Below the pieces are notes generated by a model. The model did not search any database. It was not told the DNA's origin and was given only the letters and a program-made list of their open reading frames with translations. Below, piece after piece: positions 11,697 through 64,000 of a stretch of 64,000 nt of DNA. A program made the translations under genes and the position numbers. The stretch is from Clostridia bacterium (lineage in GTDB: Bacteria > Bacillota > Clostridia > Acetivibrionales > JAFADI01): positions 37,892 through 101,891 of the forward strand of contig JAOACY010000104.1 of the NCBI GenBank assembly GCA_026417615.1. Reading direction: 5' to 3'. Every line of letters begins with the position of its first letter. Position 1 is the stretch's first letter.

Positions 11697-13010
11697 TTAT
11701 AAATCCTCCGGCATTATGTCATTTCTTATGATATCCTCATACGTTTCCCTTTTTACAATAACTCTTGCAGTACCATCTTTTACAAGTATGACGGGAGGTC
11801 TCGGTATTCTGTTGTAGTTGCTGGACATTGAGTAGTTGTATGCCCCTGTTGCAAGAACAGCAAGAATGTCCCCTGATTTCATTTCCGGCATGGTGATATC
11901 CTTAATCAGCAAATCTCCTGATTCACAGCACTTACCGGCAATAGTAACCGTATCGCATCTTACGGCATCAGGCCTGTTTGCAATGACAGCATCGTAAGGT
12001 GACTGGTATAATGCATATCTTGGGTTGTCTGTCATCCCGCCATCAACAGAAACATATTTTCTTACATTCTTAATATCCTTCACCGCACCGATGGTGTACA
12101 ACGTAATACCTGCGGAAGCCACAATAGATCTGCCGGGTTCCATCACAATAAACGGAAGCTTTATTTTCCTGTCCTCACAAAGGCTTTTTACAACCTTTGA
12201 AACTGACTCAATGTAATGGTCATACTCAATAGGATCATGCTCGTTGATATATTTTATTCCAAAGCCTCCGCCCAGATTCAGCTCATCTATCTCGATACCC
12301 AGTTCATTCTTCAGCTTTGATATGAACTCAATCATAACCTTCGCCGCAAGCTCAAATGGAGCAAGGTCGAAAATCTGGGAACCGATGTGGCAGTGTACCC
12401 CGATAACCTTAACATTTTTTAATGAGGCTGCGTATTTGACAATTTCAAAAGCTTCACCATTTTCAAGGGCTACTCCGAATTTGGAATCAATCTGACCTGT
12501 CTGGATAAAATCATGGGTATGGGCATCAATACCAGGCTTTATTCTAAAAGAAATATTTACAACCTTGCCCTTTTGTGCGGCAATATCATTGATTCTGTCA
12601 AGCTCTTCCCTGTTGTCTACTACGAATCTTCTTATATTGTTGTCTATGCCCATGTTTATTTCATCCAAGGTTTTGTTGTTTCCGTGAAAATAAACCCTGT
12701 CCATGGGGAAGCCTGCTTTGATTGCCGTGTATAGCTCCCCGCCTGACACAACATCAAGCCCAAGACCTTCCTGCTGTGCAATTCTGCAAATCGCCATGGT
12801 GCAGAAGGCTTTGCTGGCAAAAAGCACCAATCCATTGCCGTTATAATAATTATCCATGGCATTCTTATATGTTCTGCAATTTTTTCTTATCAAGCCTTCA
12901 TCCATTACATAAAGGGGAGTTCCGTATTCCTTTGCCAGTTCAACACAATCGCAGCCCCCTATTTCAAGATGTCCCTGGCTGTTTATTTTTAGAGCTTCAG
13001 ATACAAACAC
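11697..13010 (-). CDS. lysA: Diaminopimelate decarboxylase
   Basis: Motifs YGTPLYV, ASKAF, DVVSGGEL, HCHIGSQI, EPGRSIV, CESGD and GAYNYSMSSNYN. Confidence 0.95.
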   Translation of the reverse strand: MFVSEALKINSQGHLEIGGCDCVELAKEYGTPLYVMDEGLIRKNCRTYKNAMDNYYNGNGLVLFASKAFCTMAICRIAQQEGLGLDVVSGGELYTAIKAGFPMDRVYFHGNNKTLDEINMGIDNNIRRFVVDNREELDRINDIAAQKGKVVNISFRIKPGIDAHTHDFIQTGQIDSKFGVALENGEAFEIVKYAASLKNVKVIGVHCHIGSQIFDLAPFELAAKVMIEFISKLKNELGIEIDELNLGGGFGIKYINEHDPIEYDHYIESVSKVVKSLCEDRKIKLPFIVMEPGRSIVASAGITLYTIGAVKDIKNVRKYVSVDGGMTDNPRYALYQSPYDAVIANRPDAVRCDTVTIAGKCCESGDLLIKDITMPEMKSGDILAVLATGAYNYSMSSNYNRIPRPPVILVKDGTARVIVKRETYEDIIRNDIMPEDL

Positions 13011-52623: not shown

Positions 52624-52806
52624 ATGCAAAATTTTAGGGGTAAAAACTCAAAGGACATTGAAGCTGCGAAAGAAACTGTGATAATTAATGTTAAATCACC
52701 TGAGCTTTACTTCAGCAGAATTAACCCTGAGCTTGATAAGAGTGTTTCAGCCCAGCAGATAAAAGATGAGGAATTTGAAGGGGAAATGGAGAAAAGAAAG
52801 CGATAA
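52624..52806 (+). CDS. Small hypothetical protein, 60 aa
   Basis: AAGGAG RBS before ATG 52624 and a terminator-like palindrome after the stop. Confidence 0.5.
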   Translation: MQNFRGKNSKDIEAAKETVIINVKSPELYFSRINPELDKSVSAQQIKDEEFEGEMEKRKR

Positions 52807-52831
52807 AAAGGAGTTCAATTGAACTCCTTTT
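52806..52831. terminator. Perfect 26-bp palindrome, bidirectional terminator at the left boundary of the element
   Basis: AAAAGGAGTTCAATTGAACTCCTTTT. Confidence 0.75.
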
Positions 52832-54281
52832 ATGGTGGAGTGGATAAGTCTAAATCCGAAACAGTTATAGTGTTGTTATCACCGCTGTAATTGTAGGTTA
52901 TAACAACCTTATCCTCATACACGAACACAGCATTTATAAATGTGTCTATGATTTGTTGGCAATATTTTTCATCATCAATAGAGCCGCCTTTGAAGCTGGA
53001 GAGGAAAAATATAATTTGCTCTTTCGTTATGAGTTTTTGGGAGATATTTTCTTTAGCAATCTCAATTTCAAGTTGTTGTTTCTGCTCCTCCAGCTCAACA
53101 AGACGTTTTTTCGTGCTTTCGGTAATAATGCCCTGTTCAATAGCGGTAACAACATTCTTTACTGAACGCTCAACCTCAATCAATGTACTCTGCAAGTATT
53201 TTAGAGTGTTATTATTGGACAACTCACGCTCTTGCACTTCTATAGCCTTTCCAGCTATATACTCTATTACATCATCTTTCAATATTTCATTGATTGTATG
53301 AAGCACTACAAGCCGCTCAATCCAATCTTTTTTAATATTAGATTTATTGCAAGCCTTTTCTTTTTTTCTCTTAGTACATTTGTAATAGTGATATTTACCG
53401 CCATGCCTACCAGTACCACTCTCACCAACCATATTAGAGCCGCACTCACCGCAAAATAATTTTGTTGATAACATATAATTTACATTTGCTTTAGCTCTTG
53501 CAGGAGCTTTTTTATTTTTGTCCATCTTCTCACCTACACTATAGAATAATTCTTTATCAATAATAGCGGGTACGCCATCGGGAATGGCTATATCTCCAGA
53601 CTTGTAAACGCCAATATATTTTTCATTCCTCAATATGGTATGTAGGCTATTTTTATTAAAAGAAACGCCACGAGAAGTTTTTAGCCCTTGTCTATTCAAT
53701 GTATCGCAAATTTGAGTTACTGTCTTACCTTCATTATACATTTTATATATCTGAATGACTATAGGAGCGGTTTGCTCGTCAATTATAAAATGCAGATCCG
53801 CATCAACTTTATAGCCGAGCGGCAAGTTACCACCTGTAGCCTTACATTTTAAGGCATTTTCCCTCATTCCTCGCTTTATTTTCAAAGACAATTCGGCACT
53901 ATAATACTCTGCCATGCCCTCTAACATACTCTCCAGAATAATACTCTCTGGTGTACCGTTCAAGTTTTCCATTGCTGAAAGGACTTTTACGCCATTCTTT
54001 TTTAGCTTCTGCTTATTAACGGCACTATCATAGCGGTTACGAGAGAAGCGATCCAGACGATACACAATAACCGCTTCAAATTGCTTTTTAGCACTATCAA
54101 TAAGCATTTGTTGAAATGCTGGGCGGTTATCTGTTTTGCCACTTATTGCTCTATCTATATAAGTATCAATTATAGTTATTTCGTTAGCTTCTGCAAACGA
54201 ATAGCATTCCCTTAATTGCCCTTCTATACTCTGCTCTGTTTGCCTATCGCTGGAGTATCGGGCATATATTACCGCCCTCAT
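52830..54281 (-). CDS. Large serine recombinase (integrase)
   Basis: AVIYARYSS..Q...SIEGQ, D.AISG....RP.FQ, LDRFSR, recombinase domain, Zn ribbon LFCGECG...YYKC...C and coiled coil. Confidence 0.95.
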   Translation of the reverse strand: MRAVIYARYSSDRQTEQSIEGQLRECYSFAEANEITIIDTYIDRAISGKTDNRPAFQQMLIDSAKKQFEAVIVYRLDRFSRNRYDSAVNKQKLKKNGVKVLSAMENLNGTPESIILESMLEGMAEYYSAELSLKIKRGMRENALKCKATGGNLPLGYKVDADLHFIIDEQTAPIVIQIYKMYNEGKTVTQICDTLNRQGLKTSRGVSFNKNSLHTILRNEKYIGVYKSGDIAIPDGVPAIIDKELFYSVGEKMDKNKKAPARAKANVNYMLSTKLFCGECGSNMVGESGTGRHGGKYHYYKCTKRKKEKACNKSNIKKDWIERLVVLHTINEILKDDVIEYIAGKAIEVQERELSNNNTLKYLQSTLIEVERSVKNVVTAIEQGIITESTKKRLVELEEQKQQLEIEIAKENISQKLITKEQIIFFLSSFKGGSIDDEKYCQQIIDTFINAVFVYEDKVVITYNYSGDNNTITVSDLDLSTPP

Positions 54282-54493
54282 TTCTGATCGCCTTTCTGTA
54301 TGTCAACTTTTTTAGTAAGAAAATCAAAAGTTTTTAAAACGGCAACTTGATCCTTTCTATCTAAAGAACGAAAAGCCAGCTCCATTTTGCATTTATCAGA
54401 ATTTAAAGCATTACTTATACTCTCACGTTGAGCTTGCGTTATATCTTTATTAAGCAAAGACATTATAAGGAGGTTAGTAATTCGACTGTTCAT
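54278..54493 (-). CDS. Hypothetical protein coupled to repressor and integrase
   Basis: ATGA overlaps at both ends. Confidence 0.65.
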   Translation of the reverse strand: MNSRITNLLIMSLLNKDITQAQRESISNALNSDKCKMELAFRSLDRKDQVAVLKTFDFLTKKVDIQKGDQK

Positions 54494-55011
54494 AATTTAT
54501 CACCTTTTTCAATATTTTCAGTATACAGGGGGAGCATAAGCAACTCATTAAGATAATCCCTTAGCCTATTAAAACCTCTATCATTCAATTTCATAGCATC
54601 AAATAAAATTTTAATAATATCACTATCAATTACGCCAGCTAATACAAGCGATAAACGTATTGTTTGTAACTGTCCTTCATCAAATGAGAATTTATCTTCA
54701 AAAAATTTCATAACCTCATTTGCAAAATCATCACCAAATTGCAAAGCGAGCCTTTCTTCATTGCTCAAAGCATTATTATCCATAGAAGCAAAATTAATCA
54801 TATCATTTAAGGTATAGTCACCAATTAAATCACTTGGAGTAATGCCAAGTGCATCACATAGCAGTTTAATAGTGTCAATGTCGGGCTGATTAGTATTGTT
54901 TTCCCAATTACTAATTGTAGAGTTTGCAACCCCAATCATTTTCGCTAATTCCTTTTGCTTTATACCTCTATTTTTTCTAACTTCTTTTAGCCTATCACCA
55001 AAGGTTTTCAT
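54490..55011 (-). CDS. XRE-family (cI-like) repressor
   Basis: FGDRLKEVRKNRGIKQKELA...GV..STISNWE....QPD HTH. Confidence 0.9.
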   Translation of the reverse strand: MKTFGDRLKEVRKNRGIKQKELAKMIGVANSTISNWENNTNQPDIDTIKLLCDALGITPSDLIGDYTLNDMINFASMDNNALSNEERLALQFGDDFANEVMKFFEDKFSFDEGQLQTIRLSLVLAGVIDSDIIKILFDAMKLNDRGFNRLRDYLNELLMLPLYTENIEKGDKL

Positions 55012-55035
55012 ACTCAACACACTCCTATGATTTTG

Positions 55036-55160
55036 ATTATAATATAAAATTCCGAATTTGTAAATTAAAAAAAACAGAAAATCGGAATTTATTTGCAAAA
55101 TCATATTGACATTTCCGAATGTCGGAACTATAATGAAAATAAATACAGCAAGTCGGAATT
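55036..55160. promoter_or_regulatory. Divergent promoters and operators of the genetic switch
   Basis: Rightward TTGACA-17-TATAAT (55106-55134) with palindrome TTCCGA-atg-TCGGAA in the spacer; leftward TTTACA-17-TATAAT (55064-55036); further TTCCGA/TCGGAA half-sites. Confidence 0.85.
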
Positions 55161-55203
55161 TTAGACAGCAAAATTTATTAATTTGCAAAGGAGGTTACTT
55201 TTT

Positions 55204-55419
55204 ATGCGAGTTGTTGACAAAATTAAAATTTACCTTGTAAAAGAGCATATTTCACAAAAAGAACTATCTGAAAAAACAGGTATTCCACAACCTAAATTAA
55301 GTATGTCACTTAATGGAACACGAAAATTAACGGTTGATGAATTTGAAACAATTGTAAATGCATTAAGCATTAGTGCTAATGAGTTTATCGAAGAAAAAAT
55401 TTTGGAGAAAGGAGCTTAG
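55204..55419 (+). CDS. Cro-like HTH protein
   Basis: ISQKELSEKTGI.QPKLS..LNG.RKL HTH with GGAGG RBS; divergent from cI. Confidence 0.88.
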   Translation: MRVVDKIKIYLVKEHISQKELSEKTGIPQPKLSMSLNGTRKLTVDEFETIVNALSISANEFIEEKILEKGA

Positions 55420-55422
55420 AGC

Positions 55423-55851
55423 ATGGATAACAATTATTTAAAGCTTAATAACCAGCTTACCAATCTAAAGGCAGATCTTCAAAAGCTTATTGATACAGGA
55501 AGTACGAAAAGTTTTGAAGATAAAATTGCATATGGCTATATCGAAAGCCTTTTTGATAGCGTTGATATGGCTATCTACAAAATTGAGCATTTTTCAAAGC
55601 CCACTATTGAAGGTACTTTGCACGAAAACGCAAGCGGCAAATTTGATTTACTGGACAGGAGCGGCAAGTATATTACTTATTTCTCTTGCGGATCGCCTAT
55701 TGAGTGCTTTATAGAAGAGGACGGCGAGAAACAATGGATTGCTGGGCGTGTTGAGCATACAACAAAGAACGGCAATTCGGGCTATTACTTCTATGGCGGC
55801 GATAAGCCATTTTTACACAACGGAATGAGAGCCAGAATAAGAAAAGACTAA
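55423..55851 (+). CDS. DUF5348-like phage protein
   Basis: C-terminal 'SCGSPIE......W..GRVEH....GYYF.....L..GM.ARIR'. Confidence 0.7.
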   Translation: MDNNYLKLNNQLTNLKADLQKLIDTGSTKSFEDKIAYGYIESLFDSVDMAIYKIEHFSKPTIEGTLHENASGKFDLLDRSGKYITYFSCGSPIECFIEEDGEKQWIAGRVEHTTKNGNSGYYFYGGDKPFLHNGMRARIRKD

Positions 55852-55888
55852 CCCCAAACTATATTTTATAACGAAAGGAAGCGGAAAT

Positions 55889-56260
55889 ATGAATTACAAA
55901 GAGATTTGCACAAACTTAGAGGAAACATTTTTAAAAAGCGGCTACAAGATGGTCTACAAGAGGTTTAATGATGACTCTATCAATTGCTTAGGTACATTAA
56001 TGCTACTTAATGAAGGTACTGAAAAAGAAGAAAAAAGGCTCATTATCAATCTGAATACAAGCTATGAAGAAAGGCTACAGGTATTAATTGCTTTAATACT
56101 CAAATTAGAAGCAAGTACACCATTTGAAACTAAATGTTTCCACATAACAAAGGAATTCAACTTAAAGCCAAGCTATATTAAAAATTTAACCGATATTGCT
56201 ATGAAAATTATACTTGCAACGCATGGTAAAGATTTGAAAGCATTTGCAAAGGCAGTTTAG
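55889..56260 (+). CDS. Hypothetical protein (paralog A)
   Basis: GAAAGGAAGC RBS; aligns with the downstream ORF and ends in AFAKAV. Confidence 0.75.
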   Translation: MNYKEICTNLEETFLKSGYKMVYKRFNDDSINCLGTLMLLNEGTEKEEKRLIINLNTSYEERLQVLIALILKLEASTPFETKCFHITKEFNLKPSYIKNLTDIAMKIILATHGKDLKAFAKAV

Positions 56261-56296
56261 CCCACAACCACAAACAAATTGAAAGGAAGCGATATT

Positions 56297-56701
56297 ATGA
56301 GAAGATATAAAGATCCTATCAGAAGGTACAAAAAAGAAGAATTTGAGGATGCTTATACAAGGCTTAAAAACTCAATAATAGAAGTTGGTGGAAATTACAG
56401 GGTTAAAGAAGAAATCATTGAGAAAAAAGGTTATACAGGAGCGTTAATTGTTGTTGGTGAGGATAAAAAGGACAGGCTTATTGGATTAATGGTTGATCCA
56501 ACGGCAAGAGCCGAAGAAAAATTCTATACTCTTCTCCGCCTTATACTTGTTGCTCAATTCAACTTATCTTTACAGGAAAATAAGGCTTATTATGTAAATC
56601 CGTATGATGCAATTATTGGCAATATTAGAACATTTACAGCCATTATTACAGAAACCATTATGAATGGCGGAGAAATACCAGCCTTTGCAAAAGCGGTTTA
56701 G
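56297..56701 (+). CDS. Hypothetical protein (paralog B)
   Basis: GAAAGGAAGC RBS; aligns with the upstream ORF and ends in AFAKAV. Confidence 0.75.
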   Translation: MRRYKDPIRRYKKEEFEDAYTRLKNSIIEVGGNYRVKEEIIEKKGYTGALIVVGEDKKDRLIGLMVDPTARAEEKFYTLLRLILVAQFNLSLQENKAYYVNPYDAIIGNIRTFTAIITETIMNGGEIPAFAKAV

Positions 56702-56717
56702 CGGAAAGAGGGATTAT

Positions 56718-56906
56718 ATGAGTAATACTATTGCGATAAACACAAAAAGCATACCAAACGCCGTTATGGACAAGCATTGTCTTACTCTATTGAGTTGCGT
56801 TGCTAAATTCTTTGAAGATCCGAAGAATAACGCCGCTTACATAGAATGGCACAAGGAAAAGTACGGCAGAATGCCAGAGGAAGCTAAGAAATGCATAAAA
56901 AAATAG
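56718..56906 (+). CDS. Small hypothetical mobile-element protein
   Basis: GAGGG RBS; 'FF.DP.N..AY..W' motif. Confidence 0.65.
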   Translation: MSNTIAINTKSIPNAVMDKHCLTLLSCVAKFFEDPKNNAAYIEWHKEKYGRMPEEAKKCIKK

Positions 56907-57159
56907 TGATTACTCCAAGTTCGCCAACCCGATAATCACTAATTTCTACAAACACTTGCAAAAGTGCTTACAAATTCACTTATAGTATAGCATAAGTGCG
57001 GTACTTTTGCAATTTATTTTGCGAGCCTAAGTGCTTATTATCCTCGTAAAAAACATTAACTTATGGGATATAGATACCCATAGGTAAAAAATGTTAATAC
57101 AAGAGGATGGAAAAAGCTCTTTACTCTATTAAATATTATTGACAGGAGGAAAAGAAATT

Positions 57160-57945
57160 ATGCCTTACTATGAGAAAAAAATAATAAGTGGAGATCTGAT
57201 TGAGATAGAAAGATATTTTGCAACAAAAACAGGAAATAAAATGCCGAGGAGTGTTGGGCTGAATGAAAGTAGCAAGGGGCAAGAGGATTTAAATAATAAA
57301 AATGCACAGAAGAGGTTAATTCGATTGCTGAATGCAAACTTTAGCGGCAAAGCTGGAGATTTATTTGTAACCCTAACCTATAAAGATCCTGTTGAAGAGG
57401 AAGCGGCAAAAAGAGAAGTAACAAATTTCATTAGGAGGGTACGCCGCCACAGAAATAAAAAAGGGCTACCAGAAATGAAATACATAATTATTACTGAAAA
57501 CCAAGGGCGTTGGCATCACCATATTATTATGAATGCTATGCCAATGGAAGATATAACAGAATTATGGGGGCATGGCAGGACAACTATATCAAAAGTTGAC
57601 CAAGCATATAACTTTGAGGATTTAGGGCGTTATCTGATTAAAGGCGAAAAAGCTTCTAAGAATACCCCAGATATTGAGAATGCAAAAGAGAAGCGAAAAA
57701 AGCATTCTCGCAGATGGATAAGTAGCCGTAACCTAACACAACCAATTATTGAGATAAAGGAAATTAAGAAAGGCATAACAAAGACACCGCCGAAAGCTCC
57801 AGAGGGTTATTACCTCCTTCCCGACTGGAGAATAGGAACGGATGTACAAGGCAATTTATATCAATCCTTTAAATGTGTGAAGCTGGAGGAAAAGCCAGTT
57901 AACCATAAAAGCAAAGCAAGGAGGAGGAAAGAAAATGTATTATAG
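57160..57945 (+). CDS. HUH-superfamily rolling-circle replication initiator (Rep)
   Basis: Motif I FVTLTY, motif II WHHHII and motif III LGRYLIK; AGGAGG RBS. Confidence 0.85.
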   Translation: MPYYEKKIISGDLIEIERYFATKTGNKMPRSVGLNESSKGQEDLNNKNAQKRLIRLLNANFSGKAGDLFVTLTYKDPVEEEAAKREVTNFIRRVRRHRNKKGLPEMKYIIITENQGRWHHHIIMNAMPMEDITELWGHGRTTISKVDQAYNFEDLGRYLIKGEKASKNTPDIENAKEKRKKHSRRWISSRNLTQPIIEIKEIKKGITKTPPKAPEGYYLLPDWRIGTDVQGNLYQSFKCVKLEEKPVNHKSKARRRKENVL

Positions 57946-58081
57946 GCAATGTGATATATGCGGATCACACCTTGATCCAAACGAAAAATGCGATTGTCAA
58001 AGTAACAACCAAAGGAGCAATCAAGCAATAAAGGAAAAGCAAGCTCCAGAGAGAAAGGCGGTGCAAAATGAGAAAAAGTAA
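57935..58081 (+). CDS. Small Zn-finger protein, 48 aa, not in ORF track
   Basis: Hand translation MYYRQCDICGSHLDPNEKCDCQSNNQRSNQAIKEKQAPERKAVQNEKK with GGAGGAGG RBS. Confidence 0.75.
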   Translation: MYYRQCDICGSHLDPNEKCDCQSNNQRSNQAIKEKQAPERKAVQNEKK

Positions 58082-58107
58082 AATAAAAATTAGTGAGGGG
58101 GTTAAGC

Positions 58108-59358
58108 ATGGCGAGCATATTTTCAAGGATATTTAAGAAAAAGCCCTCTCCAGAGGGTATTACAACAAGTGCGGAAGTCATAGGAAGCGGCGGGAATGTC
58201 TTTACAGCATGGAGCGGCGATGCATACGCAAATGATATTTACCGAGGAGCGGTTGACAGCATAGCGAGAAACGGTGCGAAGCTAAAAGGCTCTCATGTTA
58301 TCAAATATCAAGAGCATAACAGGGTTGAAGGTGATTGCAAGCTCAATAGAGTATTGCAGATTGAGCCTAACCCTTATATGAGTGCGTTTGATATGCTTTA
58401 CAAGCTCATTACACATTATTTTCTTTACAACAATGCGTTTGCGTTTATTCAGAAAGATAACAAGGGGCAGTTATTAGGCATATACCCTCTTAACCCTCTT
58501 CATGTTGATTTTATGAGTGATGAAAACGCAAATTTGTATTGCAATTTTTTATTTACAGGCGGTAAAGAAGTATTATTGCCGTATACCGACATTATCCATT
58601 TACGCCGCAATTTCAATGATAATGATTTATTGGGGGATCTGAATACTGCCCTCTCTCCTACTCTACAGCTTGCACACACTCAAAACGAGGGAATTATTCA
58701 AGCAATAAAAAGCAGTGCGAATATTAGAGGGATATTAAAGCGTAACCAGCTATCATCAGTGGATAAGCTCAAAGAAATTCAAGAAAATTTTATAAAAGAT
58801 TATCTCAACATTGCTAATAATGGCGGCATTGCGGTTATAGATCAAGGAGCGGAATATATACCGATAGACAACAAGCCCTATGTTATTGACGAAAAGCAAT
58901 TACAGACAGTCAAAACGAAAATATATGATTATTTAGGCATTTCGGAAAAAATCGTAAATAGCAGTTATACCGAGGATGAATGGGCGGCGTTTTATGAAAG
59001 CACTATTGAGCCTTTAGCGGTGCAATTCAGCCTTGAATTTACAAGAAAGCTCTTTAATGATAGAGAGCGGGCGTTTGGTAACTCTATTATGTTTGAGAGC
59101 GGGCGTTTGCAATTTAGTAGCAATGCAACAAAAATAAATCTAATAGCTCAAATTATGCCGTATGGCTTACTTACAATAAATCAAGCATTAGAGATACTTA
59201 ATCTTCCTGCTGTAAACGGCGGCGATATTCGATTACAAACGCTCAATGTAGTTAATGCAGATAAAGCAGAGCAATACCAGCTTAATAATAAAACAATGTC
59301 CGAAACGGACACCGCAAAAGCGAATAATAAAAGTGTGTCCGAAAATAGCACAAAATAA
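58108..59358 (+). CDS. Phage portal protein (HK97 family)
   Basis: L...PNPYMS..D, NNAFA, IYPL.P, IIHLR, FYESTIEP and INQ..E..NLP.V.GGD. Confidence 0.93.
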   Translation: MASIFSRIFKKKPSPEGITTSAEVIGSGGNVFTAWSGDAYANDIYRGAVDSIARNGAKLKGSHVIKYQEHNRVEGDCKLNRVLQIEPNPYMSAFDMLYKLITHYFLYNNAFAFIQKDNKGQLLGIYPLNPLHVDFMSDENANLYCNFLFTGGKEVLLPYTDIIHLRRNFNDNDLLGDLNTALSPTLQLAHTQNEGIIQAIKSSANIRGILKRNQLSSVDKLKEIQENFIKDYLNIANNGGIAVIDQGAEYIPIDNKPYVIDEKQLQTVKTKIYDYLGISEKIVNSSYTEDEWAAFYESTIEPLAVQFSLEFTRKLFNDRERAFGNSIMFESGRLQFSSNATKINLIAQIMPYGLLTINQALEILNLPAVNGGDIRLQTLNVVNADKAEQYQLNNKTMSETDTAKANNKSVSENSTK

Positions 59359-59378
59359 TGATTTTGGAGGTGCATAGC

Positions 59379-59945
59379 ATGAAAGAATTAAGAATTTGCG
59401 AAATAAGAGCAGAAGCGGCGGCAGGTGCGGAAGCTCTTAAATTAGAGGGTATGCCGATTGTGTACGATCAGCCTACCACTATAAACGATCCAAAAGGGCA
59501 GTTTATAGAAATAATCAGATCTGGAGCATTAGACGGAGCGGATCTTACTGACTGCCGCCTACTCTATAACCACGATCTAAACAAAGTACCTTTAGCAAGA
59601 ACGCCTAAAACAATGCAATTTACCAAGAGTGCGGCAGGACTTAAAATGATTGCATCATTGCCAGATACACCAGAAGCCAGAAGCGTACATACGGCAGTAT
59701 TGCGGGGCGACTTATCGGGAATGAGTTTTGCGTTTAAAGTGCCAAAAGGCGGCGACAGGTACGATCCAAAGACCAACACAAGAGAAATCTTGAAAATTGA
59801 GAAGGTTTATGAGGTTAGTGTTGTGCCTTTTCCAGCATACCCCCAAACAAGCGTTGAAGCAAGAGCCACAATGCAACCGCAAAGAAACCAAGCAAAAAAG
59901 CAAGCCATCATAATGGCAAATAAAATTTTAATGAAAGAGGTATAA
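59379..59945 (+). CDS. HK97-family prohead protease
   Basis: F.EII..GA, LYNHD....LART, RGD.SGMSFAF and YEVS.V.FPAY.QT. Confidence 0.95.
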   Translation: MKELRICEIRAEAAAGAEALKLEGMPIVYDQPTTINDPKGQFIEIIRSGALDGADLTDCRLLYNHDLNKVPLARTPKTMQFTKSAAGLKMIASLPDTPEARSVHTAVLRGDLSGMSFAFKVPKGGDRYDPKTNTREILKIEKVYEVSVVPFPAYPQTSVEARATMQPQRNQAKKQAIIMANKILMKEV

Positions 59946-59949
59946 AAAT

Positions 59950-61197
59950 ATGAAATTTAAAACTATTGGAGAAGCTTTTAACCACTACAGAACCGCAACA
60001 TTAGAGGAAATTGAAAAAAGAGCGGGAGAAATCAAAGGATCTATTGAAACAGATGCCGAAGCGGATATTATAGCACTCAATATTGAATTGAGCGGATTGA
60101 AACAGGCAAAGGAAAATCTTTTAAGCAAAGAACCTTCACCAGCTCCAGGACAAAGATCGGCATTTAACCCAATTACAGGCGGCGACATTAAAACTAATCT
60201 CTCACAGGAAGCGGCAGAGGGTGATGTATTTGCAAGCCAAGAGTATAGAAGTGCATTTTTCAAAAGCCTTTTAGGGCAGAAGCTCACAGAAAACGAGAAT
60301 AAAGCTTTTACCAGAGCAATGGAAATTGTAGAAGCTGAAAAAAGAGCGGATGCATTCAATACCGTTACGAGTGCCGCCGCCGTACTGCCTACCGCAACAC
60401 TCAATGAAGTAATTAAGAAAGCCAGAACAATGGGCGGGCTAATATCTGCTTGCCGTAACTTCAATATACCAACCAAAATTAGCGTACCTGTAGGCACTCC
60501 AAGCAATAAAGCAAGTTGGCATACCGAAGGAGCGGCGGTTGAAAGTGAAACGAATACCGTTGCAAGTGTAAGCTTTAGCGGCTATGAAATTTTGAAAGTA
60601 TTCTCTATTTCTGCCGCCGCTAAGAAAATGAGCATTACAGCATTTGAAGCCTACATTGTAGAGGAGCTAAAAAATACAGTTCTGGAGTGTATCGCTGATG
60701 CAATCGTTAACGGCACAGGTGAAGCACAAGGCACAGGCATTTTAGAGGGTATTACATGGACACCAGACGTTAACCATTTCACATTTCATAAGACAAACGG
60801 CTTGAAGTATGCCGATTGCGTGAAGATTGTTGCCGCTTTAAAGCGTGGTTATGCCAACGGTGCAAAGTGGGCTATGAATAACTCTACTCTCTATACTCTT
60901 TTCTATGGGCTTGTTGATACTACAGGCAGACCGATTTTTATAACAGATCCTAAAGCCGAAAATATCGGAAAAATATTAGGATTTGAAGTTATTGTAGATG
61001 ATAACCTTGCAAATGAGGTTATTTTGTTCGGTAACTTTAATTACATGGGCTACAATATCCCAGAAGGAGTTATTATTGAAGTGTCAAGGGAGAGTAGCTT
61101 TAAAAGCGGCTTGATTGACTACAGGGCAATGGCTGTAGCTGATTGTAAACCGATTGTAGAGGAAGCTTTTATTAAGCTTACAAGAGCCACAGTGTAA
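59950..61197 (+). CDS. Major capsid protein (HK97 fold with N-terminal delta domain)
   Basis: Coiled N-terminus, EYRSAF.K.L, W..EG, I.NGTG..Q..GIL, W.MN, GRPIF, ILG..V and FGNF. Confidence 0.92.
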   Translation: MKFKTIGEAFNHYRTATLEEIEKRAGEIKGSIETDAEADIIALNIELSGLKQAKENLLSKEPSPAPGQRSAFNPITGGDIKTNLSQEAAEGDVFASQEYRSAFFKSLLGQKLTENENKAFTRAMEIVEAEKRADAFNTVTSAAAVLPTATLNEVIKKARTMGGLISACRNFNIPTKISVPVGTPSNKASWHTEGAAVESETNTVASVSFSGYEILKVFSISAAAKKMSITAFEAYIVEELKNTVLECIADAIVNGTGEAQGTGILEGITWTPDVNHFTFHKTNGLKYADCVKIVAALKRGYANGAKWAMNNSTLYTLFYGLVDTTGRPIFITDPKAENIGKILGFEVIVDDNLANEVILFGNFNYMGYNIPEGVIIEVSRESSFKSGLIDYRAMAVADCKPIVEEAFIKLTRATV

Positions 61198-61209
61198 AGG
61201 TGTGATTAA

Positions 61210-61488
61210 ATGATACTATCACTTGATGAAGCAAGAGAAATATTAAGGATTGACGGCACAGACAACGACAATATTATAACGTCATTGGTTGAAGCTATAC
61301 CAGATTACATTACACTTACAACAGGGATTAAGCCCGAAGAAATGAGCGGCATTCCTCTTGTAAAGACGGTAGCAAAGTTTATATTGCAATTCTGGTATAA
61401 CGCTGAACAATCAGACGGCGACAGGCTACAACGGACAATAGACAGCCTGTTAAAGACATTATCACTTATGGCGAGTAGGAGCGTGTAA
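61210..61488 (+). CDS. Head-tail connector (gp6-like)
   Basis: LSLDEA...LRID..D.D..I..L..A...YI...TG and 'WY'. Confidence 0.88.
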   Translation: MILSLDEAREILRIDGTDNDNIITSLVEAIPDYITLTTGIKPEEMSGIPLVKTVAKFILQFWYNAEQSDGDRLQRTIDSLLKTLSLMASRSV

Positions 61489-61491
61489 GAT

Positions 61492-62244
61492 ATGGCTAAG
61501 GACTATGCAAGATCGTTTTATGATAGTAGTACATGGAAGAAAACCCAAGCACTCTATTTAAGCAGTCAAAACTATATATGCGAAGATTGCGGCGGCGTTG
61601 CTTGCATAGTCCACCATATCAAGCACATAACGCCAGACAATATTAACGATCCCGATATAACATTAAATTGGGATAACTTAAAGGCGGTATGTACTGAATG
61701 CCATGCGATAGAGCATATGGGAAAGGATGCAAGGCTTAACGGCATTTCGTTTGATGAAGAGGGAAATGTTATCAAGCAACCAAATGTATATCTTATTTGC
61801 GGAAGCCCAGCAAGCGGCAAGACGGCGTATGTCAACAGGAATAAAACAAATAGAGATCTTGTTATAGATTTAGATTTGATTTGTGCGGCTTTAATGGGTG
61901 AAGAAAATAATAATTACTTAAATAACGAGCCAATATTAAGCGTTGCAATTGAAGTTCGTACCCTTCTCTATAGTATCGTAAAAACAAGGCGTGGTAATTG
62001 GGATAAAGCCTATATCATATCAACAATATCCAATATTTTAGAGCAAAAGGCATTAGCAAACGAGCTTAACGCCGAAATTGTTATTATAAATACACCTTTA
62101 GAGGAGTGTATAAGACGGCTACATAAAGACCAACAGCGAGCAGGAAAAATTAAAATGTTAGAGGAGCTAATAAGCAAATGGCATGAAAACTATAATAAAT
62201 CGCTTGAATTTTCAAAGCATCCCCCCTATTCCATCACAGATTGA
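61492..62244 (+). CDS. HNH endonuclease fused to a P-loop (AAA_33-like) domain
   Basis: FY.S..W, CEDCG...VHH...NL..VC..CH..EH, then LICGSPASGKT and D.D. Confidence 0.85.
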   Translation: MAKDYARSFYDSSTWKKTQALYLSSQNYICEDCGGVACIVHHIKHITPDNINDPDITLNWDNLKAVCTECHAIEHMGKDARLNGISFDEEGNVIKQPNVYLICGSPASGKTAYVNRNKTNRDLVIDLDLICAALMGEENNNYLNNEPILSVAIEVRTLLYSIVKTRRGNWDKAYIISTISNILEQKALANELNAEIVIINTPLEECIRRLHKDQQRAGKIKMLEELISKWHENYNKSLEFSKHPPYSITD

Positions 62245-62310
62245 GAGGGGGGCGACACCGTAGGGCGAGGTTTTCCGTACCCCTCCATGAGTTTTCGCAT
62301 AAGGGGAGGG
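62221..62310. other. Candidate cos packaging region
   Basis: GC-rich inverted repeats CCCCCCT/AGGGGGG and CCCTCC/GGAGGG between HNH and terS. Confidence 0.55.
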
Positions 62311-62341
62311 TTAAAAATTGAAGGATATGAGGTGATTTACT

Positions 62342-62695
62342 TTGACAGTTGCCAAAGATAAACAAAACTTGCAGAACATACGAAAACTAAAAAAACTATT
62401 AAGGCTAATTCCAGAGGATCGAAAGGCAATAGGCGAAAAGCTTGTTGAAGAAATCTCTTTTATGTCTGAAACCCTTATGGAGTTGAAAAAGACCGTTTCA
62501 GAGAAAGGCGTTGTAGATCTTTTTGAGCAAGGAAAGCAAAAGTTTATGAGGGAAAGCCCCGCATTGAAAGCATACAATACAACGATCCAACGTTACAGCC
62601 TTTTATATAGACAGCTTACCGATCTATTACCCAAGCCAGAGCCGAGCGACAAGGCAAAAGATGAATTGCTGGAGCATTTACAAGGGAAGGGCTAA
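62342..62695 (+). CDS. terS: Terminase small subunit
   Basis: 'EE..FM..TL..L...V...G....F.QG.Q...RESPALKAYN....Y...Y.QL..LLP'; directly before terL. Confidence 0.8.
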   Translation: MTVAKDKQNLQNIRKLKKLLRLIPEDRKAIGEKLVEEISFMSETLMELKKTVSEKGVVDLFEQGKQKFMRESPALKAYNTTIQRYSLLYRQLTDLLPKPEPSDKAKDELLEHLQGKG

Positions 62696-62698
62696 CGA

Positions 62699-64000
62699 TT
62701 GAATTATCTTTTAGAATACTGGAAAGAGATAGAGGGCGGTAAATGTGTTGTATCGAAGAGGGTTAAAAAACAATATGAGAAGCTTATAGATAACATTGTT
62801 AATCCTAAAGACAAATTTATATTTGATGAAAAAAGAGCGGAAGATCCAATAATTTTTATTGAAAAGTTTTGCAAGCATAGTAAAGGCGAATGGGCGGGAA
62901 AGCCTGTTAAGCTGGAATTGTTTCAAAAGGCGTTTATATCTGCTCTTTTTGGCTTCATAAACAAAGATACAGGATTAAGACAATACCGAGAAGCTATGTT
63001 TTATGTAGCAAGGAAAAACGGTAAAAGTACAATGCTTTCGGGAATTGCTCTATATATGCTGATTGCCGATAATGAAATGGGATCAGAAGTCTACAGCACT
63101 GCAACCAAGAAAGACCAAGCGAAGCTAATATTTGATGAAACGCATAACATGATTAAACAAAGCCCTTGCTTACGGAAGCATATAAAGAAGCGGAAAACAG
63201 ATATATACTTCCCCCTCACCCTCTCCAAGTTCCAAGCATTGGGAAAGAATAGCGACACCTTAGACGGCTTAAATGCTCATTGCGTTATTATTGATGAATT
63301 ACATGGAATTAAAGACCGTAACCTATACGAAGTTATGAAACAGTCGCAGAGTGCAAGGCGGCAACCATTACTAATAATGATAACAACGGCGGGAACGGTT
63401 AGAGAGTGTATTTTTGATGATATGTATTCCTATGCTTGCAATATAGTTGACGGAAATTTTATAGATAACAGCTTTTTACCTATCCTTTACGAATTAGATA
63501 ATCGGGAGGAGTGGACATATCCAGAAGCATGGCAGAAAGCTAACCCAGCTTTAGGAACAATTAAGAAGCTGGACGATATGAGAAGTAAAATTAGCAGAGC
63601 CGAGAATAGCCCCAATGATTTAAACGGAATATTGGTAAAGGATTTTAATATAAGAGATACCATAAATACAGCATGGTTAACCCTTGATGATATTATAAAC
63701 GAGGAAACATTTGATTTATCGCAATTTTGTGATTATTACGCTATTGGGGGAGCGGATCTTTCAATTACAAATGATTTAACGTGTGCCACTCTGCTAATGA
63801 TGGATAAAGCAACGCAAAAGAGGTATGTAACCCAAATGTATTGGCTACCCAAAGAGAATTTTGAGAAGCGGGTTAAAATAGACAAGATCCCCTATGACAA
63901 ATGGCACGAAAGAGGGCTATTAAGGCTATGTAATGGAAATACAATTAACTACGGCGATATTACAGCATGGTTTATTGAAATGGCTAACCAATATAAGATA
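62699..64000 (+). CDS. terL: Terminase large subunit (truncated by the window end; not in ORF track)
   Basis: Hand translation from TTG 62699: MNYLLEYW...FIEKFCKHSKG...LELFQKAF...YVARKNGKST...LDGLN....IDELH...ITTAG...W.KANP.LG...GGADLS. Confidence 0.95.
   Translation, partial: MNYLLEYWKEIEGGKCVVSKRVKKQYEKLIDNIVNPKDKFIFDEKRAEDPIIFIEKFCKHSKGEWAGKPVKLELFQKAFISALFGFINKDTGLRQYREAMFYVARKNGKSTMLSGIALYMLIADNEMGSEVYSTATKKDQAKLIFDETHNMIKQSPCLRKHIKKRKTDIYFPLTLSKFQALGKNSDTLDGLNAHCVIIDELHGIKDRNLYEVMKQSQSARRQPLLIMITTAGTVRECIFDDMYSYACNIVDGNFIDNSFLPILYELDNREEWTYPEAWQKANPALGTIKKLDDMRSKISRAENSPNDLNGILVKDFNIRDTINTAWLTLDDIINEETFDLSQFCDYYAIGGADLSITNDLTCATLLMMDKATQKRYVTQMYWLPKENFEKRVKIDKIPYDKWHERGLLRLCNGNTINYGDITAWFIEMANQYKI

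Follow-up and report, generated by a model that had tools for sequence, protein, structure and literature searches.

We analyzed a 64,000-nucleotide stretch of DNA (the window; contig JAOACY010000104.1, positions 37,892 to 101,891, assembly GCA_026417615.1) from a metagenome-assembled genome (MAG) of a Clostridia bacterium. The last part of the window holds an element of 12,411 bp that is very probably an integrated phage satellite of the capsid-forming phage-inducible chromosomal island (cf-PICI) type. It would belong to the broad-Firmicutes group of these satellites and represent a sub-lineage in which a serine integrase and an HUH rolling-circle initiator (Rep) replace the tyrosine integrase and the primase-helicase. 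The element runs from window position 52833 to about 65243. Its right end lies beyond the end of the window, and the DNA past the window was read to the contig end (contig positions 100500 to 111834); positions there are given as window equivalents. The source genome comprises 2.46 Mb in 127 contigs and is 84% complete.

The genes follow the order serine integrase, cI/cro, small open reading frames (ORFs), HUH Rep, zinc-ribbon ORF, portal, S78 protease, HK97 capsid, adaptor Ad1, HNH-AAA fusion, small and large terminase subunits (TerS and TerL), head closure protein Hc1, and an ArpU/RinA-like regulator (Table 1), and every ORF is intact. An earlier, sequence-only reading had listed int-(orf)-cI, cro, four small ORFs, Rep, a zinc finger, and the genes from portal to terL, and Pfam and PHROGs searches found all of them in the places it had given. 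For the ORFs between the left and right attachment sites (attL and attR), searches of Pfam, PHROGs, and NCBIfam returned no tail, holin, or endolysin families. No membrane-like segment was present in the unassigned ORFs (the four early ORFs reached a maximum of 1.07 on the Kyte-Doolittle scale, window 19), and no ORF of the element contained a primase or helicase domain, the HUH Rep standing in that position. The reading had also claimed that tail, lysis, primase, and helicase genes are lacking, which holds all the way to attR. The DNA after terL, which it had proposed to check, contained just Hc1 and the regulator, then host tRNAs, and the second attachment (att) site was found there. Contiguous tail and lysis modules, the mark of a tailed prophage, did not appear, as the host tRNAs and rpoD come directly after the element. 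Because no tail or lysis module follows terL, the element is not an ordinary prophage.

The element lies between host trmK and NIF3 on its left and, on its right, tRNA-Met and tRNA-Asn on the opposite strand, followed by host rpoD and dnaG. Its GC content is 0.30 to 0.40, compared to 0.42 to 0.45 in the left flank. No close copy was present in the nearest 40 genomes searched, where the best portal identity was 27%. The host lineage is itself isolated (best trmK identity 54% among 40 relatives), and with trmK at most 54% identical, the intergenic DNA and the empty site are not comparable in these relatives.

Table 1. Features of the element and of the adjoining host DNA, in window coordinates (we = window equivalent, past the window end). 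Scores are E-values.
Feature	Position	Strand	Evidence or content
60-aa ORF and perfect hairpin after it	52624-52831 (ORF 52624-52806)		host DNA
Large serine recombinase (integrase), 483 aa	52830-54281	-	Pfam Resolvase 2.8e-28, Recombinase 1e-18, Zn_ribbon_recom 2.1e-14
attL core TGGTGG	52833-52838		identical to 3' end of tRNA-Met (CCA, discriminator, 2 acceptor-stem nt)
P' arm	52839-52864		contains AAATCCGAAAC, inverted relative to GTTCGGATT of right-end arm
71-aa ORF between integrase and repressor	54278-54493	-	no match in Pfam, PHROGs, NCBIfam
cI-like helix-turn-helix repressor, 232 aa	54490-55188	-	HTH_3 1.2e-18; Phage_CI_repr 2.9e-4, below cut-off
cro-like helix-turn-helix protein, divergent from cI-like gene	55183-55419	+	HTH_3 2.3e-7
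DUF5348 early ORF	55423-55851	+	
Three further early ORFs	55889-56260, 56279-56701, 56664-56906	+	no assigned family
Candidate double-strand origin region	56907-57138	+	232-bp gap upstream of rep
HUH Rep (REP_ORF2-G2P family), 268 aa	57139-57945	+	PF23343 5.4e-17; phrog_3584 1.5e-57
48-aa CxxC...CxC zinc-ribbon-like ORF	57935-58081	+	
Portal	58093-59358	+	Phage_portal 1e-54; phrog_12 6.9e-72
Prohead serine protease S78	59358-59945	+	Peptidase_S78 1.9e-28
HK97-fold major capsid	59950-61197	+	Phage_capsid 8.6e-37; phrog_10 5.4e-51
Head-tail adaptor Ad1 (gp6-like)	61210-61488	+	Phage_connect_1 4.7e-5; phrog_40 1.7e-10
HNH endonuclease fused to P-loop AAA_33	61492-62244	+	HNH 2.2e-4, AAA_33 1.2e-6; phrog_4581 1.4e-65, phrog_119 9.3e-17
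Candidate cos/terminase recognition site	62250-62312		GC-rich, non-coding; inverted pair CCCCTCC (62280-62286) and GGGGAGGG (62303-62310)
Candidate TerS, 117 aa	62342-62695	+	phrog_1066 5.9e-30 (function unknown); phrog_2343 terS 3.7e-5
TerL, 547 aa	62699 to we 64342	+	phrog_9 1.3e-158
Hc1 head closure	we 64352-64702		Phage_HCP 1.6e-16; phrog_25 2.6e-20
ArpU/RinA-like regulator (DUF1492)	we 64708-65148		phrog_36 1.1e-16; NCBIfam ArpU 1.8e-9, below cut-off
P arm and attR core	we ~65200-65249		then host tRNA-Met
attR core TGGTGG	we 65244-65249 (L002:2636-2641)		

This parts list is that of a known class of satellites. According to the available text of Alqurainy et al. (10.1101/2022.09.08.507074), cf-PICIs carry int, a regulator, and rep together with capsid, protease, portal, connectors, HNH, TerS, and TerL, and no tails; those of Bacillus, Clostridium, and Staphylococcus place portal-protease-capsid first and hnh-terS-terL after. 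The element has (i) capsid, protease, and portal, (ii) the connectors Ad1 and Hc1, (iii) HNH and TerL assigned firmly and TerS weakly, (iv) an integrase with an adjacent regulator, (v) no tail, holin, or lysis genes, and (vi) the Firmicutes order. Going by the parts of the literature available, it resembles the Firmicutes cf-PICIs in its left-end integrase and switch, its head and packaging set, and a size of about 12 to 15 kb across very distant hosts. It differs from them in having a large serine integrase where a tyrosine type is usual, an HUH Rep instead of a primase/helicase-type replicase, cI/cro instead of AlpA, and an att core at the CCA end of tRNA or transfer-messenger RNA (tmRNA) genes. 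With EcCIEDL933, the E. coli prototype described in the same preprint, it shares a parts list, and that satellite makes its own small capsids, packages with HNH-TerS-TerL, and steals only tails. EcCIEDL933 is, however, from an independently arisen clade, measures 15.4 kb, and carries the tyrosine int, alpA, and rep common to classical E. coli PICIs.

The available part of the SatelliteFinder study (de Sousa et al., NAR 2023, PMC10085698) describes a cfPICI model of 11 core components with tail and holin forbidden, a median size of 14 kb, and 969 catalogued cfPICI. Lacking a primase-replicase, the element would score there as Type B or C at best. The same text gives tyrosine and serine recombinases as an example of functional analogues exchangeable in the models. 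It notes that capsid and protease tend to be merged in Firmicutes (they are separate genes here), and it reports cfPICI from Lactobacillaceae and Enterococcaceae and rarely from Bacillaceae and Streptococcaceae; its passage naming Clostridium concerns PICI, not cfPICI. The sequence-only reading had offered the architecture as new and had named prior cataloguing as what would count against it. To a large extent that is the outcome, as the order is already published for Firmicutes cf-PICIs, and what survives of the claim is the different integrase/Rep back-end. A cf-PICI with an HUH Rep, or with a serine integrase aimed at the tRNA CCA end, did not occur in the published text available, though Fig. 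S7 or Table S4 of 10.1101/2022.09.08.507074 may already show one. The element thus reveals no new kind of system; what is unusual is its integrase, its replication gene, and its insertion site at a tRNA end.

A TerL search returned 77 loci in species-representative genomes, which were classed by BLAST synteny against the element's proteins. The satellite order (portal-protease-capsid-Ad1-HNH-terS-terL-Hc1) was present in 46 of them, with TerL about 62 to 78% identical; their hosts are, among others, Anaerotignum, Lachnospiraceae, Oscillospiraceae, Christensenellaceae, Clostridium, Acetobacterium, Cohnella, Niallia, Cytobacillus, Priestia, Alicyclobacillus, and Aerococcaceae. Another 13 had a phage order (terS-terL-portal-capsid). 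In 12 of these TerL was at most 55% identical and the downstream ORFs were of tape-measure size: these loci have the classical HNH-terS-terL-portal arrangement, then ORFs of 700 to 900 aa. The thirteenth, the 12.8-kb contig L052, is circularly permuted and falls among the satellites. The remaining 18 were left unclassed, being too short or without a portal or capsid match. From IMG/VR we obtained 343 relatives; among the 80 kept, 64 had the satellite order, 1 was permuted, and 15 were too short, and many were 12 to 15 kb long. A quick IQ-TREE analysis of TerL placed 48 satellite-order and allied rows together (SH-aLRT, an approximate likelihood ratio support, of 90), apart from 12 long-branched phage-order rows.

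These relatives bear on the possibility that the element is a defective prophage remnant, immobile and having lost its tail and lysis genes by deletion. Such a remnant would fit with the head genes being about 25 to 30% identical to those of tailed phages (the best deposited-phage match of the capsid is just 30.5% identical), and with the fact that neither a helper phage nor evidence of excision was found. We nevertheless consider it unlikely. A tail-less layout of this kind, with Hc1 or a regulator as its last gene, recurs through the satellite-order loci and IMG/VR contigs in many host families; the ORFs are intact, as are the core and both att arms, whose anatomy is repeated in three elements; and the gene order is unlike that of related true phages, whose TerL falls in a separate group.

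Within the satellites, the element's back-end sets it apart. The largest ORFs upstream of the portal, assessed in 37 of the 46 satellite-order loci, were mostly of primase/helicase type (DUF5906 in 15, D5_N in 14, NrS-1 polymerase in 8, Pox_D5 in 6, DUF3987 and Prim-Pol in 4 each, DUF927 in 3, and DnaB_C in 2), with REP_ORF2-G2P in 4 of the 37. By BLAST, Rep was present in 5 of the 46. All nine primase-type loci tested had a tyrosine integrase beside the repressor, one of them also having a serine recombinase further out. At the left end of four of the five Rep-bearing relatives stands a serine integrase homologous to the element's (70, 69, 46, and 46% identity); no integrase is present on the fifth, the 12.5-kb contig L054. 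The element and its four serine-integrase/Rep relatives form a TerL clade with an SH-aLRT of 99. When IMG/VR contigs were added, FastTree recovered an 18-row clade (support 0.974) in which 12 rows carry Rep, while the other 6 begin at or after the portal and so cannot show that region. On the 11.9-kb contig L120, the nearest relative (TerL 82% identical), serine integrase, cI, Rep, head module, and TerL are all present. This congruence points to the pairing of serine integrase and HUH Rep as a real, co-inherited sub-lineage. The sequence-only reading had proposed a distinct clostridial satellite lineage: the lineage stands as this clade, but it is not specifically clostridial, the packaging module being found at 65 to 78% TerL identity in Bacilli as well as Clostridia.

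Neither half of the pairing is new in itself. Serine recombinases are already known among satellites, in the PLEs (elements resembling phage-inducible chromosomal islands) of Vibrio cholerae and the marine virion-encapsidated integrative mobile elements (VEIMEs). From the available text of PMC9618062, both use them for integration, as the element would, and some VEIMEs have plasmid-like initiators; unlike the element, they have no major capsid or TerL genes and use helper capsids, and their hosts and gene sets are unrelated. The Rep family, for its part, occurs at 26 to 39% identity in the tailed phages PhiS63 and phiSM101 (Clostridium), Arawn/Idris (Butyrivibrio), and Latilactobacillus phages, and also in the phage-order loci L077, L082, and L091. 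As in the element, a REP_ORF2-G2P-type initiator there stands beside an HNH-terS-terL set of the same TerL family. These are, in contrast, full phages of 28 to 38 kb with terS-terL-portal-capsid and then tail-sized genes, and their TerL is at most 55% identical and outside the satellite group. The sequence-only reading had put weight on rolling-circle initiation feeding cos-type packaging as the special trait of the lineage; this cannot be upheld, since ordinary tailed phages use this Rep family too. Two faecal "Bacteriophage sp." matches to Rep, MT837226.1 and MT836660.1, were set aside; judging from ORF sizes and order only, the first resembles an ordinary-phage fragment with an open-ended long ORF.

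The integrase carries all three domains of a large serine recombinase (resolvase catalytic domain, recombinase domain, and zinc beta-ribbon), and the ends of the element show the corresponding att anatomy. No long direct repeats were found between the two ends, and a short 6-bp core without one is what would be expected for a serine integrase. The attL core overlaps the last two integrase codons, with the stop codon immediately adjacent, and inverted arms (GTTCGGATT / AAATCCGAAC) flank the two cores. Aligned locally with the reverse complement of the P' arm, the P arm scored 27, a value reached by 15 of 1,000 shuffles. As this alignment is weak by itself, the att assignment rests on recurrence in three elements: L045 (core TGGTGGAC, tRNA-Ala) and L095 (core TGGCGG, tRNA-Ser) are laid out in the same way, and in all three the repeated core is the exact encoded ...CCACCA or ...CCGCCA end. 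The right-end arm is also conserved in three relatives, where it abuts the encoded 3' end of an RNA gene (tmRNA in L041, tRNA-Ala in L045, and tRNA-Ser in L095). Based on this att analysis, the hairpin behind the 60-aa host ORF would have stood directly behind tRNA-Met before integration, and in the empty site it is probably a two-way terminator. Because the core in attP, the att site of the circular form, overlaps the last int codons, the integrase C-terminus should differ between integrated and circular forms. In L045 (L109:200-260), the integrase frame continues into host DNA as an open frame of 559 aa.

Two of these relatives, L041 and L045 (right ends near 12730; left ends in L110 and L109, respectively), have integrases that are 98% identical (447 of 455 residues) and yet lie at different RNA genes, the first abutting tmRNA and the second tRNA-Ala, with a ...TCCACCA 3' end common to both junctions. 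Because such similar integrases are found at these two genes and distant ones at tRNA-Met and tRNA-Ser, we tentatively propose, as a possibility that may well prove wrong, that the integrase of this sub-lineage is directed not to one gene but to the near-universal acceptor/CCA 3' end that tRNA-like genes share. Together with its own initiator and capsid, this would let the satellite move between Bacillota hosts that are very distant from one another. If true, CCA-end targeting could help explain how one packaging cassette has spread over such distant hosts. Literature titles on large serine recombinases at tRNA genes included none on CCA-end targeting, but titles are not proof of absence.

Turning to replication, Rep contains FVTLTY (residues 76-81), HHHII (126-130), and YLIK (165-168), which we take to be motif I, the HUH metal-binding motif, and the catalytic tyrosine motif, respectively. 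The HxH and the tyrosine are kept in every homologue covering those columns; a search of solved structures returned no match to Rep at E-values up to 1. The 232-bp gap upstream of rep folds more stably as DNA than expected (z = -2.94, with 0 of 200 shuffles as stable). At 56977-56998 it contains a hairpin with the stem CACTTAT/ATAAGTG and the loop AGTATAGC, nested within a longer stem. The motif AGTATAGCATA(A/T)GTG lies upstream of Rep in five of six Rep elements (the element itself, L041, L045, L095, and L076) and is absent in L054. We read this conserved hairpin as a candidate double-strand origin. The small zinc-ribbon-like ORF that follows has homologues adjoining Rep or the portal in L054, L069, and L076. 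An NCBIfam scan of six small ORFs of the element returned no matches.

For packaging, the non-coding gap between hnh and terS contains a conserved site that we interpret as a putative terminase recognition (cos) site. In an alignment of 17 loci that were chosen for carrying the motif and whose hosts belong to different classes, 6 columns are invariant and 6 nearly so. A stringent regular expression matched in 15 of 65 loci, which is clearly an under-count. The candidate TerS is conserved upstream of terL in both satellite-order and phage-order relatives. The fusion of HNH to the kinase-like AAA_33 domain is kept across the family at 40 to 66% identity; one of the families it matches, phrog_4581, is labelled "terminase small subunit" in PHROGs.

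From these parts, we propose the following cycle. A cI-like repressor would keep the element silent. Induction would presumably come from a helper phage or from stress, and the serine integrase would then recombine attL with attR at TGGTGG together with a directionality factor; the att anatomy is observed, the excision inferred. Rep would then nick the hairpin origin just upstream of its gene and generate rolling-circle concatemers, as its motifs and the conserved site suggest. The portal, S78 protease, and HK97 capsid of the element may form small proheads, into which its own TerS, TerL, and HNH could package unit genomes after recognising the hnh-terS site. Ad1 and Hc1 would complete the neck. 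Since the element has no tail or lysis genes, a helper phage would be needed for both.

A helper-free life has also to be considered, in which the element, as an autonomous capsid-forming replicon of a tail-less or plasmid-like kind, would spread as, for example, a circular episome or in tail-less particles. It has its own initiator, capsid, and terminase, and circles occur in its family: L121, L176, and L178 (13.1 to 14.3 kb) have terminal direct repeats of 95 to 127 nt and were thus assembled as circles, and L176 is identical to L065, which makes up an entire contig in the assembly of a Bacillus isolate and so hints that a free circle exists in culture. A 2026 paper (PMC13669383), in the part of it available, speculates on small HK97 genomes with Rep-like initiators. 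Circular assemblies are, however, also expected of excised or replicating satellites. The element moreover has a portal, Ad1, and Hc1, whose known role is tail joining; its att sites are intact, it carries an integrase and a cI/cro switch, and it is without a lysis gene for cell exit. We therefore regard helper-free spread as very unlikely. A domesticated, host-controlled particle system that packages host DNA in the manner of a gene transfer agent is scarcely credible: a tail-less head and packaging module does sit within a conserved housekeeping neighbourhood, but it comes with its own integrase, repressor switch, initiator, att sites, and conserved terminase recognition site, is missing from the nearest 40 genomes that were searched, has a GC content below that of its flank, and has relatives at different RNA genes in other hosts.

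Several observations weigh against interpretation of the element as a cf-PICI-type satellite and should be kept in view. No helper phage was identified in the 84%-complete MAG. It contains no second TerL_ATPase, Phage_capsid, or Phage_portal match besides the element's own, and it has zero matches to PhageMin_Tail, Sipho_tail, Prophage_tail, or Phage_sheath_1. Prophages are often left unbinned. In the source run, a hot springs metagenome consulted as contigs only, we found no trustworthy excision junction, as every joint had a side of fewer than 30 letters in a tRNA region common to many organisms. Excision, replication, and packaging are predicted from genes and sites. Among the published cf-PICI components, the primase-replicase (pri-rep) is missing, and TerS is identified from its position and a weak family match. 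The TerL tree supports are SH-aLRT and FastTree values only, and the trees include no named reference cf-PICI, identity with the published clade resting on gene order and host genera. Finally, the downstream tail check in relatives covered 10 large ORFs and 10 Cohnella ORFs, from part of the 46 loci, and two of the Cohnella proteins had weak tail-labelled matches (phrog_46 at 5e-10 over a LysM stretch, and phrog_5555 at 9e-5).

If the element is such a satellite, Firmicutes capsid-forming satellites are modular, with one conserved head and packaging cassette joined to two or more unrelated back-ends for integration and replication. The lineage with serine integrase, HUH Rep, and CCA-end att sites ranges from gut Clostridia to this hot-spring MAG. 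The att core and arms, the origin hairpin, and the cos-like site are exact sites that can be tested. A satellite finder whose model demands a primase-replicase will score such elements too low, and hundreds of relatives are filed as viral genomes in IMG/VR.

Downstream of Hc1, the large ORFs of ten relatives encode host or cargo genes: FliF, UvrA, a type II secretion system ATPase, transglutaminase, M23 peptidase, MmeI-type restriction-modification, and LysM proteins. In L096 (12075-14828), a complete MmeI-type restriction-modification enzyme of 917 aa with five MmeI domains stands directly after Hc1 and may be defence cargo. The Cohnella loci L032 and L033 (12000-19500) continue for about 7 kb with same-strand genes, among them LysM proteins of 743 to 916 aa and a match to phrog_4311 "minor head protein" (2.5e-36). 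Searches of ten ORFs there against PHROGs and Pfam found no tube, tape-measure, or distal-tail family, with matches driven by LysM and the two weak tail-labelled ones instead, and these loci look like larger variants with cargo.

Two relatives come from MAGs outside the Bacillota, L034 from Gastranaerophilales (Melainabacteria; TerL 77% identical) and L090 from Saccharibacteria (about 70%). L034 is nearly identical to the Eubacteriales contig L037. The presence of L034 and L090 in these MAGs reflects either mis-binning or spread beyond Bacillota. In the element's portal gene, two tandem 28-nt copies that are 86% alike lie at 59050-59109 with a spacing of 32 nt. Close to the portal stop, at about 59284-59344, there is another pair, of 22-nt copies, with a small hairpin; these repeats may be chance or coding repeats. 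In a 2023 run labelled as marine metagenome, short low-depth contigs match the Rep-to-capsid region (L108:5185-9643, window ~56690-61150) with a few differences per contig, and thus a close relative is present in another habitat.

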